From a virus: a stretch of 64,000 nt of DNA. Shown here one piece after another: positions 4,189 through 14,781 of the stretch. The stretch lies in IMG/VR virus record IMGVR_UViG_637000207_000006. The stretch is one strand, 5' to 3'. Position 1 is the first letter of the stretch; each line of letters begins with the position of its first letter. The position numbers were made by a program, and so were the translations under genes. The notes beneath the pieces were generated by a model. The model was not told the origin of the DNA and searched no databases. It saw nothing but the letters and a program-made list of their open reading frames with translations.

Positions 4189-4711
4189 GAATAGACTCCA
4201 CTGTTTTAGTGTTCAGCGTAATACTGTCAAAAAATAGTTGTTCTGTTGTCACAACAGGGTTGATTTGAGCAGTAAATTCAAATGTCCAACGCGACTCATA
4301 TTGCTGTTCACCATTAATCATCGTCGTCTGAATCGGGTCGCTGGCATAAAGTGGTGCCATATCGATACCTGATCTCTTGAATAGCTCAATCGCATATTCA
4401 GTGCGCACCGTCGTTGCAATAATGTGAGCATCCTCATGAGCGAACTGACCGTAACAGTCAATTTGACATGTCCAGCGTGTCGTCCGAGTGATTAGACTTT
4501 TTCCCATACCTGCCGCTGTTGGTGCGTTATAGATCACTACACTTGTTGATAAACCCGTGCTGTTCAATGGTGTCATAACAATAAAATCGCCATCTGACAT
4601 CGGTGAGCGATTTATCTGAGACAAAATAACGCTACGCCTGGGTATTAAGGCCATTAAAAAACCGCGTAATGCGGTTGTTATATCGTCTTGCGTTACACTT
4701 ATCGTCACCAC
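4169..4711 (-). CDS. Tail terminator / neck protein
   Basis: Immediately before the sheath gene. Probable GTG start at 4711 overlaps the upstream stop; the track ORF begins at 4789. Confidence 0.65.
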
Positions 4712-5082
4712 TATTGTTCCCCACGCTGCAATGTAACAGCGAATTTGCACCAATTCGGCCACTCTTCCAAAATCTGCACTATCAACCACTCTTCACCATT
4801 AATAATCAACAGATCACCCCCTTGCTGTCTGGGGCGGTTGACGGCATTAAAATTGCCATTCACATAAGCCGCTTTGAGCATGCCCTGAATATTCAAGCCG
4901 TTCGTATGTTGTAGATCAGTAAAAGTCAGTGGCTGGATTTGTGCGGTAACGGGTGTTGTAATGTAGCGCGGGACTTGCTTACCACTGGGTGCAATATCAT
5001 ATCCCACACTTACCCGTATCTCTCCAGGTGAGTGAGGATTAACAACCCCAACAGCACCAGATACAATATTGTGCAGGTTCAT
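4711..5082 (-). CDS. Head-closure / head-tail joining protein
   Basis: 123 aa, MNLHNIVSGAVGVVNP, in the neck gene cluster. Confidence 0.6.
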   Translation of the reverse strand: MNLHNIVSGAVGVVNPHSPGEIRVSVGYDIAPSGKQVPRYITTPVTAQIQPLTFTDLQHTNGLNIQGMLKAAYVNGNFNAVNRPRQQGGDLLIINGEEWLIVQILEEWPNWCKFAVTLQRGEQ

Positions 5083-9173: not shown

Positions 9174-10046
9174 TTAATTGGTTAGTTTAGGAATGACGAC
9201 CTGCCAACCACACCCGCAATTGATTTCTTCACCAGGCATGATCCATTTTCCGTCAATATAAAGCCCTTTTGATAAATCGAACTCTTTACCATCCGCTTTC
9301 AAGTGTGATTGACGAAATTTTTTTGCTGCATGACTGTGCCGCCAGATACCCGTTTTAAAACCCATTGAACGCTGCCGGGCAGATTGCATAACAAAAGTCG
9401 CTTTGTTGTTCTGGTCACGAGCAATCAGGACTGCTCGGCGCTTAGTAATGTCGTAACGCTCTTGCAAGGCTTTTGTCAACGTTCCAAGATCACGCCCCCT
9501 TGCTACTGATTGCATCACTAGCGTTTCAACTTGGGATAAATATTGCCGTGGAATACTTTTAATCAACCCAACATTCTCACCAATGACCGTCTGTAGCGCG
9601 TTATTCATTTCTGTCGTCATCGTGAACGGTATCGAAATATGTGCCGCATCTAACGCATGATTTAACGAGGCATCCATGTTGTCCATTGATAAAGCCGCGA
9701 ATTTTTTCGCCAGCTTGTCAGCTAAAGCATCAAACTGCTTTAACCAACGCCGGGTTAATTTTCGCATTGCTGAACGCATCAACATCTCCGGGCTAACATC
9801 CATTGCCATTGCTGCACCGCTGTTCTTATAGTTGGCGGATACCCAGTAAATCACCGAGTTATTCATCTCATCCACCAGCTTATATAACTGCTTGCTGTAC
9901 CACACCCGAACACCGGCATTAGGTTTAATTTGTCGGAGTGTTTGAAGGGGATCAGATGATGTTTTCCGTGTTGCCCTCTTCTTCGATGTCGTCTTCTTTG
10001 TCGATTTCATCATTGATTTCCAGAGAGTGATACGGGCTGTTTTCAT
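9174..10046 (-). CDS. Minor head morphogenesis protein (SPP1 gp7 / Mu gpF-like)
   Basis: IARDQNNKA and C-terminal PGEEINCGC motifs. Confidence 0.85.
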   Translation of the reverse strand: MKTARITLWKSMMKSTKKTTSKKRATRKTSSDPLQTLRQIKPNAGVRVWYSKQLYKLVDEMNNSVIYWVSANYKNSGAAMAMDVSPEMLMRSAMRKLTRRWLKQFDALADKLAKKFAALSMDNMDASLNHALDAAHISIPFTMTTEMNNALQTVIGENVGLIKSIPRQYLSQVETLVMQSVARGRDLGTLTKALQERYDITKRRAVLIARDQNNKATFVMQSARQRSMGFKTGIWRHSHAAKKFRQSHLKADGKEFDLSKGLYIDGKWIMPGEEINCGCGWQVVIPKLTN

Positions 10047-11457
10047 CGTTGGCTAGACGTTCGCGAGCTTCATCTGTGCTAATCACATTTGCAGCAATTA
10101 ATACTGAATCAGTATCTGCATCGGTCTTACGTATGCTGGCTTTTTGTTCATCATTCATTTGATACAGCGGTTCGAATGTAAAGCTAATATCAGGATCAAT
10201 TTCGCCAAATTCGGATAATTGAATAATATCAATCATTCGTGCCAATCCATCTTTCACTAACATTTGCAAGGTAGCAATGAAGTCATAGAAAACACGGATT
10301 TCCCCATCAGATGACGCATTTAGCCCGCTTGGTGTGATACCTGTAAAAATCACTAACGGTATGCTACTGACTGAACTCATATGTTCCTGAGACTGGGCTT
10401 GCAGTGAATCAAGGCCACTTAGCGGTGTATTGAACTGGAAAAACTCCTCTTCGTTATCCAGCATCATTACCCCTCGGTTATCACGCATCTTGTTAAACAA
10501 TTCTGCACGATAAATTAACTGATCGGGATTCTTCGTCTGTCCTTGCAACGTCGATTGAAGATTGGTTTTAAATCCAGACACAGAGAATGAATGGATCAAA
10601 TCAGATACGCTATCACGTGTCCTATACCAGTTTTGTACATAAGACTCTGCAATCTGAGTCAGTGATAAGCCGCCGAAATTATACGCAGGTTTAAACATAT
10701 CGGTTAATGGCCGGGTGATAAATGTAATCAAACGACTGTCATGTACAGTTTTTGCCATCACATACCAACTTGACGGCTTATAGAAATCATTGCTCAACGG
10801 GTTGCTAGCGTTATAAATCCCCGGATATGTCCATATTGGCTCAATGACGTTAAAGCCAATAAGACTCCCCTTTGTGATTTTTTTGGGTGACAGAAATAAT
10901 CTAGACTCAAGTTCAACCGGATCGGTTGCAGCAAGCACGCCTCTTGACGTGCGAACATCAATGTAAATCTGACCTCGCCCAAAAAAACCATCATGTTCAA
11001 TGGCTTTTTTTAACCGTTCACGAACGTGGAATTTTTCAATAGCCTCATTAAGCGCTTTGATTTTATCTGATTTGTCATTATCCCCCACTGACGTTAGCTT
11101 TATCCACTTACGAGTCATCTCCCCTGCAATAGTGCCGACCATTTTCCGATATTCGGGTAATTGTGACAGTTGGGCCAGATAAGGATAACCGGGGAAACCC
11201 ACATCTCCCGATATACCACCTGTACCCGTCATATATTCATAAGGTGTAGAATCCATTGCCATTAATGCGGATAACTGTTCAGTAGGAACAACACCGGGAG
11301 GGGGCCTGTATGGTTCAACAGGCCGAGCTACTTTTCTCTCTGTTATCGATCCGACAGTATCCGGATGTATGTTCATTGGCTGAGGTGATGCTTGATCAAT
11401 ATCCTGTTCAACTGGCAAAACCTCCGCTTTCTTTTTATGTCTGAATTTGAAAAACAT
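9952..11457 (-). CDS. Portal protein (DUF1073 family)
   Basis: Follows terL; [20 protein letters not shown] motif; likely start ATG 11457 (track ORF starts at 11586). Confidence 0.88.
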
Positions 11458-12640
11458 TAAATTCGCCCAACAGATTTTTAGATATACGAAGTGGGTTGTT
11501 TTTGCCTGTGATATAACCATCCAGCGAATAACGTACCGCATCCCATAAATGGTTATGTTTGTCGAGCACCACCGGCAGGATTTCACCGGTCAGTCGGTCA
11601 GTCTTGTATGAATAGAGTCTTGCCTCATCAATCATGTGCTTACAGCGTTCATGAATAATGATTTCTTCAAAGCCTTTAAGATAAGTGATCCCGTCCTCGA
11701 CACTTCCGGGCCATTTTGTGGCACCATCGATAACGAACCCCTGGCGTGATAAGTAACTGATAGTTTCCGGTCGGCTACTGTCCCCATGAATGGGCCATTT
11801 ACGAGAAAGCGGCACCGAATCATAGAACTGGGGCATTTCATCTAATTCAACGCCTACCCCATAGGCTTCATATTCGATATATAGTTTGGTACCAATAATG
11901 AAGCAGCGAACCAGTGTGGATGGGTCATTAGCGAAACCAAAGTCAGCTCCATAGAAAAGCCGGTCGGCTTCTAGCCATAGCTCATCAGAAAATGCTTCAA
12001 CCCGGTATTTTCCAGAGAAAATAACCGCTTCACTGAGTGCTTTTGGTAATCCAAGCCAAATATGCTCATACGCTTCATAATCGATGCGTTTGCAATATTC
12101 CATTTCCTGCCGGAGTACGTCAGGGAAAAAGGCGTTATCACAATAGTTAACTTTTCGAATAATAACGCCGCCGTCAGAGGGATCTTCCTGATGCCGGGTC
12201 ATCAGTTTGTATGTCGGGTCCTCTTCCTCGCGAGGGTTGAAAGAAACCCAGACTTCGGATTTATTAGCACGTACAGTTGGCCCAAGAATATCCCAACTAT
12301 CTTGCGAAACGGTCTGAGCCTCTTCAACCCAGCAGATCTTAATGCCATGCATCGACTTGATGCTTTGAATATTGTTGCGAAGACCTTTAAACGTGAAACG
12401 AGTGCCGTTCTGACCTTCAATCTCGTTGTTTTTGACCTTATAGAAGTGGGACAGTCCAAGATCAATGATTTGTGCCTCAAGCAGGGCAAGAACAGAATCA
12501 TTGATTGAGTTCTGGAATTCACGGGCACAAAGAATCGTCATTGGTTCTATAGCACCCAACAATACCAGCGCACGAGCAATCTCTACCGATTTACCGCCAC
12601 CACGCCCGCCATATGTCCAACGCCAGCGAACAGAACCCAA
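11435..12640 (-). CDS. terL: Terminase large subunit (PBSX family)
   Basis: Walker A GGRGGGKS, Walker B WVEEAQ, nuclease GADFGF...DAVRY. The only start is a weak TTG; the frame is open upstream through the terS 3' end. Confidence 0.92.
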
Positions 12641-12665
12641 TGCTCGGTCATATAAAACCTCTGTC

Positions 12666-12742
12666 GCCCAGTCACTACTAAAGGCGTACAGAACACCATC
12701 TATGATGACTGGGCTACCTGTTTTCCCTCGCGCAATTTCTCC
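12666..12742 (-). promoter_or_regulatory. Putative programmed -1 frameshift signal between terS and terL
   Basis: GGAG at 12742-12739, then 11 nt, G GGA AAA at 12727-12721, a 6-nt spacer, and a hairpin with a perfect 9-bp base GCCCAGTCA/TGACTGGGC (12714-12706 with 12674-12666). Confidence 0.72.
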
Positions 12743-13419
12743 ATGTGAGAAGCCCAGACATCAGCAGGACAATTGGCGGGAGTGACAATACAGACTTTGC
12801 CATAACTCAGGCCAGCGAGATCAACATTGACCTCAGTTTTATTGCTGCTCATGTCGATACCGGTAAGTTGCGCAGCGTTCTTAATGTTCGGCGCAACCTG
12901 TCCGAACTTCTTATCTGCTAACGCTTCCTTCCCAGCACGAAACGACAATTCAGCCAGGTGTCCAGCATTGAATGAAACAAGCAACGCCGCTTCGTTTCTC
13001 AGTTCTCGAATGCGGGCTTTTATTTCCGGTCTGCGTATCAATATGGATGATTGAGAATCAGCACGGGCTGGAGAGTAACCCGCACAAATTGCCGCCTCTT
13101 TCATCGGCATACCCGCCGCTATGTTTTGAGCAAACTGTTCGTATTGCGGCTTTAGAATCCCTGCGGTTCCTTGCGAACTCTCTGCGAACTTTTCAGACTC
13201 CAAGATATTACTGGTGTTACTTGCTACCTGACTTTCCGCTTGGTTCGCATCAGGTTCGCACTGCGTACTGTCAACAATAGTGCGAACCCATTCCTCAGTC
13301 TTTGCCCTCTTGCGGATTGCGGCATCACTAATACCGTACTTTTTGGCAATCTCCCTGATTGAGAGAAAGCCGGAACGGTAATCACGCTCTATTCCCTCCC
13401 AGTCAGTATTTTTTGCCAT
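12700..13419 (-). CDS. terS: Terminase small subunit
   Basis: N-terminal HTH ([26 protein letters not shown]) plus a second [11 protein letters not shown]; directly upstream of terL. Confidence 0.85.
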
Positions 13420-13860: not shown

Positions 13861-14781
13861 GGGTGTGTCCCGCAATAGGCTGAGATAGAATAATCTATGT
13901 GGCTCTGACTTTCGGAAAAAACATGTTATGGCTCGTTACGACCTTCCTGATGAAGCATGGGAGTTACTGCTCCCCTTATTGCCCCCTGAACATTCTCAAC
14001 GGGCGGGACATCCTTATGTTGAACACCGCCGGGTTATCAACGGCATGTTTTGGATACTCTGTTCCGGTGCCCCCTGGCGGGATTTACCCGAACGTTATGG
14101 TTCCTGGAAAACCGTCTATAATCGCTTTAATCGGTGGGCAAAATCGGGGCTCATTAACCTCATTTTCAATAAGTTATTGTCAATACTGGATGAACAAGGT
14201 TTAGTTGATTGGTCAGCTATATCTCTGGATGGCAGTAACATTCGTGCGGCACATTGTGCGGCGGGCGCCAAAAAAAACATCCCGATGTCACCGAAAATCA
14301 TGGCCTGGGTCGCTCTCAGGGTGGTTATGGCTCCAAAATCCATCTGGCGGTCGATGGAAAAGGCTATCCACTGAATGTGGTACTCAGTGCAGGTCAATGT
14401 CATGAAAGTCAATATGCAGTGCGCCTGCTGGATGGTCTGGGTATTCAGCGTAAAAACGGTTTTATGAAACGTCGTTCAAAAGCGGTGATTGCTGATAAAG
14501 GTTATGCCAGCCACGCATTACGTAACCGGTTAAAAAGTCAGGGAATAAAAGTGATAATTCCCTATAAATCAAATGAAAAAGCGCGGTCAGATGGACGGGT
14601 TAAATTCGACCATGAAACGTATCGAAGAAGAAATGTTGTAGAAAGATGTTTTGGTCGACTCAAAGAGCATCGTCGCATCGCCACCCGTTATGAAAAGACA
14701 GCAAGAAATTATATCGCTATGGTGAAATTAGGTTGTATCCGCTTATTTCTTAAGGCCATAATTTAATTGAGGGACATAACC
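13861..14781 (+). mobile_element. IS5-family (IS427/IS1031-like) insertion sequence, 921 bp
   Basis: Terminal inverted repeats GGGTGTGTCCCGCAAT / ATTGAGGGACATAACC (13/16 match) flanked by a TA duplication at 13859-60 and 14782-83. Confidence 0.9.
13928..14766 (+). CDS. IS5-family transposase, two overlapping ORFs joined by a frameshift at an A-run
   Basis: orfA 13928-14374 (GAPWRDLPERYG, DUF4096-type) and orfB 14254-14766 (DDE: ADKGY, RRNVVERCF); A-tract near 14270-14278. Confidence 0.88.

Follow-up and report, generated by a model that had tools for sequence, protein, structure and literature searches.

The 64,000-nucleotide (nt) stretch of viral DNA analyzed here, IMG/VR record IMGVR_UViG_637000207_000006 (the window), carries the genes of the small and large terminase subunits, terS and terL, and near the end of terS lies a slippery heptamer that is a candidate site for programmed −1 ribosomal frameshifting into terL. 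All features of this junction (terS, heptamer, hairpin, and terL) are on the minus strand of the window. The terS gene (12700 to 13419) is located directly upstream of terL and encodes, in the zero frame, a small terminase of 239 amino acids (aa), which passes the Pfam Terminase_2 profile (PF03592) only marginally, with 27.2 bits against a cutoff of 26.1; its homologs hold a precomputed PF03592 assignment.

A first-pass annotation, made from the DNA letters alone, had described terL as lacking an ATG or GTG start, with only a TTG that has no Shine-Dalgarno (SD) sequence ten codons before the Walker A motif. It had further placed the terL frame at −1 relative to terS, open through the end of terS, and had located terS codons 232 and 233 in a heptamer G GGA AAA. 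These descriptions hold in every coordinate. Listed from its first ATG, GTG, or TTG, the open reading frame (ORF) of terL begins at TTG 12640, not preceded by an SD sequence, and reaches Walker A at codon 11. The frame is −1 relative to terS and is open upstream back to a TGA at 12763-12761, and the heptamer occupies positions 12721 to 12727 as an X XXY YYZ motif in the phase of terS, GGA and AAA being codons 232 and 233.

The part of terL from the TTG onward (11435 to 12640) encodes a Terminase_3 ATPase, with Walker A at 12610-12587, and a Terminase_3C nuclease. Profile matches to PF04466 (Terminase_3, E value 6.7e-42) and PF17288 (Terminase_3C, E value 3.4e-15) assign the protein to the PBSX/Terminase_3 type, which combines an N-terminal ATPase with the Walker A sequence GGRGGGKS and a C-terminal RNase H-like nuclease domain. 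The AlphaFold model of the 428-aa product of the −1 frame has a mean predicted local distance difference test score (pLDDT) of 86; among solved structures in the PDB, Sf6 gp2 is the best match (E value 5e-29). The window is similar to a Photorhabdus prophage, its TerL showing 96-98% identity to TerL of several Photorhabdus species.

Conservation of the slippery heptamer

Related loci were fetched with TerL peptide patterns that exclude the junction, 21 from reference genomes and 80 from IMG/VR, to which we added the Providencia phage PSTCR3, a plaque-forming isolate, and an Escherichia coli prophage (L104, NZ_AP027788.1). The 61 loci with the clade-type TerL N-terminus comprise 51 distinct terS-terL junction sequences. 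Their hosts are Photorhabdus, Xenorhabdus, Pantoea, Morganella, Providencia, and Escherichia, together with Serratia-like contigs, and protein names extend the clade to Serratia, Yersinia, Citrobacter, Salmonella, Mixta, and others; these prophages thus form a widespread enterobacterial group. Changes were counted by Fitch parsimony on a tree built from 900 nt of the terL body, independent of the junction. The plaque-forming phage PSTCR3 has the same layout of terS, heptamer, and terL.

The first-pass annotation had proposed conservation of the heptamer as a check, and in the comparison the hexamer GGGAAA is invariant in all 51 distinct junctions, always at the same alignment position and in phase with terS, with A (19 junctions) or G (32 junctions) as the seventh base. 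This invariance includes the two sites of the heptamer that are synonymous in terS, namely the third base of the codon before GGA and the A of GGA itself, neither of which shows a parsimony change. Third positions of terS further upstream have 2-23 changes each, typically about 9-10, the only exceptions being the non-degenerate Trp and Met codons. The residue before the Gly is Glu, Thr, Ala, or Met, and its codon ends in G wherever the DNA was seen (GAG, ACG, and GCG); Met (ATG) is deduced from one TerS protein ending in MGK, not from DNA. The motif GGGAAAR occurs 27 times in the window against about 19 expected, so that its occurrence alone is not unusual and its significance rests on phase, position, and conservation. 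Judged by these junctions, the heptamer is conserved beyond coding needs.

In TerS proteins, the C-terminus ..KLR[ETAM]GKxx[AT][QR][SQ], that is, KLR[ETAM]GK followed by five or six variable residues, is found in 72 of 73 cluster representatives, which include homologs down to about 51% identity. The sole representative lacking GK at the slip site, P0157, comes from a 925-nt Logan contig and reads ..KLREESRRPSHN. This is the sequence expected if one G were lost from GGG, by either an assembly error or a mutation of the slippery run.

Two other causes of the heptamer's conservation were considered. A pac site or another constraint at the DNA level is unlikely, because precisely the heptamer's first six bases are invariant and neighboring synonymous sites are free to vary, which argues against a longer DNA signal. 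An antisense ORF (12465-12785, plus strand) is not supported as the cause either, because the three-base periodicity of the variation fits the terS frame and then the terL frame.

The E. coli copy has only fragments 3' of terL (locus positions 4353-4891), annotated as a partial Acb1-family gene and a partial helix-turn-helix (HTH) gene, with the chromosomal yciI/tonB beyond them. It is a prophage remnant in which terS, heptamer, and terL are still intact.

Reading frame and start codons at the junction

The numbers of codon and amino-acid changes per position show which frame is under selection. Upstream of the heptamer the terS frame is constrained (codon/amino-acid changes of 6/0 for a Lys, 11/0 for a Leu, and 10/2 for a His), and the −1 frame, which contains stops there, is unconstrained (15/13, 20/18, 10/10, 12/12, and 11/11). 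Downstream, the tail of terS, its last six codons, has no constraint at the protein level (14/14, 9/8, 2/2, 3/2, and 1/1). The −1 frame is constrained from the second codon past the heptamer, with an Asp at 9/3 (GAT/GAC) followed by 3/3, Pro 2/0, 1/1, and Ile 2/0; the next codons (Ile 9/0, 9/3, Gly 7/0, Val 7/0, and Leu 8/1) carry the constraint onward into Walker A. Its onset lies four codons before two consecutive Ile codons near the terS stop. A single terS third position just 3' of the heptamer is G in 50 of the 51 junctions, whichever of six amino acids or a stop its terS codon specifies, which makes sense only as the first base of an Asp, Gly, or Glu codon in the −1 frame. As far as sequence comparison can tell, the selected reading frame thus passes from terS to the terL frame exactly at the heptamer.

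The 27 codons of the −1 frame between heptamer and TTG (12641 to 12721), regarded in the first-pass annotation as a linker whose conservation should be checked, are indeed conserved as protein, with synonymous change at third positions. They are really the N-terminus of TerL and align to the N-terminus of TerL from a sister clade of about 65% TerL identity. In the AlphaFold model they form a predicted beta-hairpin (residues 5-12) and a helix (residues 17-24), both of moderate confidence, which is consistent with this region being part of TerL. Since the canonical N-terminus of the sister clade aligns just past the heptamer, a slip there would join a nearly full-length TerS to a full-length TerL.

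One junction from Photorhabdus cinerea (L006, junction near 2489-2500) has a CAG-to-TAG change that ends terS directly after the heptamer (G GGA AAA TAG). Its terS stop is 15 nt earlier and the last 5-6 residues of TerS are lost, with the peptide DSPVIIDG intact in the −1 frame, showing that the TerS tail past the slip site is dispensable. A zero-frame stop adjoining the slip site could itself promote slippage.

The upstream limit of the −1 frame in the window (12755 to 12763) reads TGA at 12763-12761, then TGT, then CTG at 12757-12755. This CTG is the sole upstream NTG and consists of the third base of a terS codon and the TG of the Trp codon TGG; in the relatives its first base is C, T, G, or A. 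Stops of the −1 frame lie between this NTG and the heptamer in 12 of the 51 junctions, immediately 5' of GGG in four distinct ones (L008, L042, L063, and L064) and three codons upstream of GGG in eight more, the E. coli copy having its stop likewise. In nine of the 51 junctions there is no ATG, GTG, or TTG at all between the upstream stop and Walker A. At the position of TTG 12640, a canonical start is present in the window, L012, and L023 (TTG), in L011, L014, and L036 (GTG), and in L056 (ATG); such a codon is missing from most of the remaining junctions, so this is not a conserved start. Within a few nucleotides of the terS stop, which occurs at three positions, no AUG, GUG, or UUG is found, only AUA, AUU, and AUC. 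By these comparisons, terL of this clade has no usable start codon.

The upstream NTG was rejected as a general start, being a synonymous base of terS plus the TG of Trp, with stops following in 12 junctions. We also rejected ATG 12651 as the ancestral terL start. The first-pass annotation had named homologs with a normal in-frame terL ATG as the case that would overturn its interpretation, with this SD-preceded ATG and a local indel as the example; the junctions do not bear this out, the ATG being out of frame and present only where a Tyr codon is TAT (22 of 51).

Canonical starts are the rule in the sister clade, where each of the 36 distinct junctions contains an ATG, in most cases with GGAG before it, and lacks an upstream heptamer. 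This ATG lies 19-27 codons before the RYK motif, which directly precedes Walker A. In the clade of the window, database entries for one conserved protein give TerL lengths of 360-454 aa, with the initial "M" placed at about a dozen positions, some of them past Walker A. In the PSTCR3 record, terL is annotated from a point 160 nt past the end of terS and 3' of Walker A, and the PGAP start of the E. coli terL is a GTG 20 codons past the heptamer. In ES18-like phages (L103), tblastn matches to this TerL begin only at query residue 59-63, past Walker A, and ES18 gene 2 is annotated from 416 with a 17-nt overlap with gene 1; the N-terminal region of ES18 TerL is either very divergent or otherwise organized.

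Contigs from RNA sequencing (RNA-seq) in two studies (X1/X3 and X9) span the junction and are colinear with the DNA, with no mismatches and no indels, indicating that the bulk transcript carries the two-frame arrangement. Such contigs may miss a rare slipped transcript, are not by themselves proof of transcription, and may not be independent of the assembly of the window.

Candidate stimulators of frameshifting

A hairpin of 49 nt (12666 to 12714) follows the heptamer after a 6-nt spacer (12715 to 12720), whose sequence varies among the relatives. The hairpin, a candidate stimulator, has a 10-base-pair (bp) base, GCCCAGUCAU/GUGACUGGGC, and inner stems. Its predicted folding energy in the window is −27.9 kcal/mol (z = −4.96), and none of 200 shuffled sequences folds as well. 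The first-pass annotation was therefore right about size and spacing in the window, but the full structure is conserved only in the subclade to which the window belongs (subclade 1, 29 of 51 junctions). Four representatives of this subclade have energies from −28 to −30 kcal/mol with z from −4.6 to −6.0, and several synonymous changes keep the pairing. Ten representatives of subclade 2 (22 of 51) show no significant fold (z from −0.8 to +1.6), and this subclade keeps only a stem base of 5-6 bp, RCCCA(A)/(U)UGGGY.

The 5-bp stem base pairs in all 37 distinct sequences, with GC-to-AU exchanges at two pairs, a conservation to be read with caution in that Pro and Trp codons occupy the same positions. 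Synonymous sites in the 3' arm of the hairpin have changed less often (3-4 changes) than those beyond it (mostly 8-16). The subclades differ in the final base of the heptamer: G GGA AAG is present in 21 of the 22 junctions of subclade 2, and subclade 1 has AAA in 18 and AAG in 11 of its 29. This distribution suggests that the shiftier codon and the structure may compensate each other, though the pattern comprises few independent events.

The window does contain the SD-like GGAG that had been noted 11 nt 5' of the heptamer (12739 to 12742), but this element is not conserved in the relatives. At its site the junctions read GGAG (24), GGAA (18), GGAT (8), or GGAC (1), the fourth base being a terS third position with 12 changes, and L011 has GGCT, differing at the third letter too.

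The frameshift model, its rivals, and known systems

Taken together, the comparison of relatives strongly supports the interpretation of the first-pass annotation, whose proposed comparative checks all turned out favorably, and we consider it probable that a programmed −1 ribosomal frameshift at G GGA AAR joins terS and terL. The two genes would then be one recoded translational unit. When a ribosome reaches G GGA AAA, its P site would be occupied by the Gly tRNA (GGA) and its A site by the Lys tRNA (AAA), and in a fraction of ribosomes both tRNAs would slip back one base in tandem, from GGA to GGG and from AAA to AAA, probably helped in the subclade of the window by the stable hairpin 6 nt downstream. 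Slipped ribosomes would read the terL frame and produce a TerS(1-233)-TerL(428) fusion of 661 aa, the length that had been calculated as 233 + 27 + 401 and is correct, and unslipped ribosomes would terminate six codons later to give free TerS (239 aa). The efficiency of the slip would set the TerS:TerL ratio. No initiation signal for TerL is conserved, and so most or all TerL probably arises through the slip. The slip itself, the fusion protein, and its co-assembly with free TerS are what we infer from the aligned sequences. In lambda G/GT, experiments have established G GGA AAG as the −1 site.

A further-reaching version of the frameshift model, to which we give about an even chance, is that TerL is never free. 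All TerL would be made as a TerS-TerL fusion, at a frequency set by the slip, and would co-assemble with an excess of free TerS, so that a single signal fixes the stoichiometry of the holoenzyme and tethers the motor to the DNA-recognition ring. The hairpin in subclade 1 and the AAG in subclade 2 would be alternative ways of tuning the ratio.

Several observations weigh against frameshifting as the link between the two genes. The fusion is a product deduced from sequence. No natural in-frame TerS-TerL fusion is present among the best 120 matches listed for an approximated query one residue short, where no match covers more than 58% of the query, an outcome that says little either way. The hairpin is absent from 22 of the 51 junctions, and the upstream GGAG, whose last base varies freely, was rejected as a conserved stimulator, so that no universal stimulator was identified among the 51 junctions. 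An upstream SD-like stimulator defines only the dnaX type and not −1 frameshifting in general, and a downstream structure is not required at every known site, the lambda G/GT frameshift being one that does without. G GGA AAA is a weaker shifter than the form ending in AAG in E. coli, and TerL would be scarce if the slip at G GGA AAA were its sole source. TerL might assemble less readily on the portal if each copy carried a TerS domain of about 26 kDa. Finally, two conserved Ile codons (ATH ATH) lie close to the terS stop, where reinitiation at a non-AUG codon is conceivable.

This last point leads to the main rival, in which TerL is a separate protein that starts by termination-reinitiation at one of the conserved Ile codons (AUA, AUU, or AUC) overlapping or adjoining the terS stop. 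The Ile-Ile pair is invariant in all 51 junctions, the ATA always overlaps the terS stop (ATAG in the window and ATAA in most relatives), and TerL of the sister clade has its canonical N-terminus at the matching position. The overlap is forced, however, whenever a TAA or TAG of the terS frame lies over an Ile codon, and so it is not independent evidence for reinitiation. No SD sequence precedes the Ile codons, and AUA and AUC are very poor bacterial start codons. Protein-level selection in the −1 frame is already evident four codons earlier (the Asp, the Pro, and the G in 50 of 51 described above), terS of L006 stops 15 nt earlier, and the invariance of the synonymous sites of the heptamer is left unexplained. 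We therefore regard reinitiation as unlikely. Ordinary starts that differ between lineages, either the NTG ten codons before the heptamer or a downstream TTG or GTG such as TTG 12640, are very unlikely to account for TerL. They are what the databases annotate (360-454 aa, including the PGAP choice of a GTG 20 codons past the heptamer in E. coli), and the upstream NTG, CTG in the window, is TTG, GTG, or ATG elsewhere and follows a GGAGG where it is GTG in L020 and L011 (GGAGG in Pantoea). Yet this NTG is made of a terS synonymous base, at which all four bases occur, and the TG of Trp; it is cut off by stops in 12 of the 51 junctions, nine junctions have no canonical start anywhere, the downstream candidates would remove 20-32 residues that are conserved as protein, and no position is common to the whole clade.

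Transcriptional slippage, in which RNA polymerase alters the base count at GGGAAAA and a minority of mRNAs encode the fusion in frame, would yield the same protein and the same conservation of the run. The runs here are only G3 and A3-A5, and known tracts of transcriptional slippage are far longer. Both the X XXY YYZ phase and a hairpin set off by a spacer are typical of slippage by the ribosome, and the RNA-seq contigs of both studies agree with the DNA, though a rare variant is beyond what contigs can exclude; this explanation is most improbable. The idea that a one-base indel broke an earlier start of terL, either because the prophage is decaying or because the assembly is a draft, could draw on the insertion sequence (IS) of the IS5 family just upstream of terS in this prophage. 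The phase relation is, however, the same in 61 loci of many genera, as it is in a plaque-forming phage; purifying selection acts on terL, which is intact; and the RNA-derived contigs of two studies agree with the sequence. Decay or error is scarcely credible and is effectively refuted by the comparative data already.

The proposed frameshifting at G GGA AAR has a close counterpart in lambda G/GT, and the lambda tail-chaperone frameshift has equivalents in most long-tailed phages. The heptamer is the same (the identical G GGA AAG in 32 of 51 relatives, G GGA AAA in the window), the site is in a phage late operon, a short zero-frame product is accompanied by a minor C-terminally extended fusion at a ratio set by the slip efficiency, and there is no evident downstream structure, as in subclade 2. 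The proteins are different, being tail assembly chaperones there and TerS and TerL here, and the extension in lambda is a short accessory domain, whereas here it is a complete essential enzyme of 428 aa, apparently without another route of expression; one terS-terL subclade has in addition a strong hairpin. With dnaX (tau/gamma) and IS911/IS3 orfAB the window shares a three-part layout, in which an X XXY YYZ heptamer has an SD-like GGAG about 11 nt before it and a stem-loop 6 nt after it, and in IS3 OrfAB the trans-frame product likewise fuses a DNA-recognition protein to a catalytic enzyme. In dnaX and IS911, however, the heptamer is A AAA AAG rather than G GGA AAR, and in the clade of the window the SD-like element is unconserved and the hairpin is partly conserved; in dnaX the shifted product is, moreover, the shorter one. 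Ordinary terS-terL junctions, as in the sister-clade PBSX/Terminase_3 prophages of Pantoea, Chitiniphilus, and Pseudomonas and in phage ES18, share the gene order, the TerL family (about 65% identity), and the short overlap or abutment of the genes, but they have an ATG start, no heptamer, and separate TerS and TerL polypeptides.

The terminase is the best-studied viral DNA-packaging machine, and control of the TerS:TerL ratio and the physical coupling of the subunits are still debated. If true, a conserved frameshift fusion would be a new solution to both problems, would provide a ready-made covalent TerS-TerL complex for structural work, and would mean that an essential enzyme can depend wholly on recoding for its expression. 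Among bacterial −1 sites, whose usual classes are tail chaperones, IS elements, and dnaX, it would be a deeply conserved addition, and the difference in stimulators between the subclades makes this site suited to comparative studies of recoding. Hundreds of database TerL entries of this family have arbitrary, truncated, or non-existent starts, which a ribosomal-slippage annotation would correct; none of the database records examined annotates the slip site.

The type of mechanism is known, and what would be new is its use to join two terminase subunits, apparently as the sole route to an essential enzyme. The only terminase recoding in a comprehensive review of recoding is the bypassing in the Hau3 terminase (PMC5009743), which takes place at UUA within one gene of an unrelated phage and host. 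We found no published report of a TerS-TerL frameshift in the literature searched, only the Hau3 bypassing and, for a Microbacterium prophage, a split terL that is speculative.

Two further features flank the terminase genes. The IS5-family element (13928-14766, plus strand) lies about 500 bp upstream of terS, between terS and the rest of the late operon, and in this copy it may thus separate terS-terL from the late promoter. Its transposase is split over two frames, with a DUF4096 N-terminal part and a DDE_Tnp_1 C-terminal part, and the frame overlap contains an A8 run at about 14269-14277, a typical −1 frameshift motif of IS elements. On the other side, the portal ORF (Phage_portal_3; 9952-11586, minus strand), shares about 150 nt with the end of terL when it is listed from its first GTG; its true start is probably an internal Met just past the terL stop.

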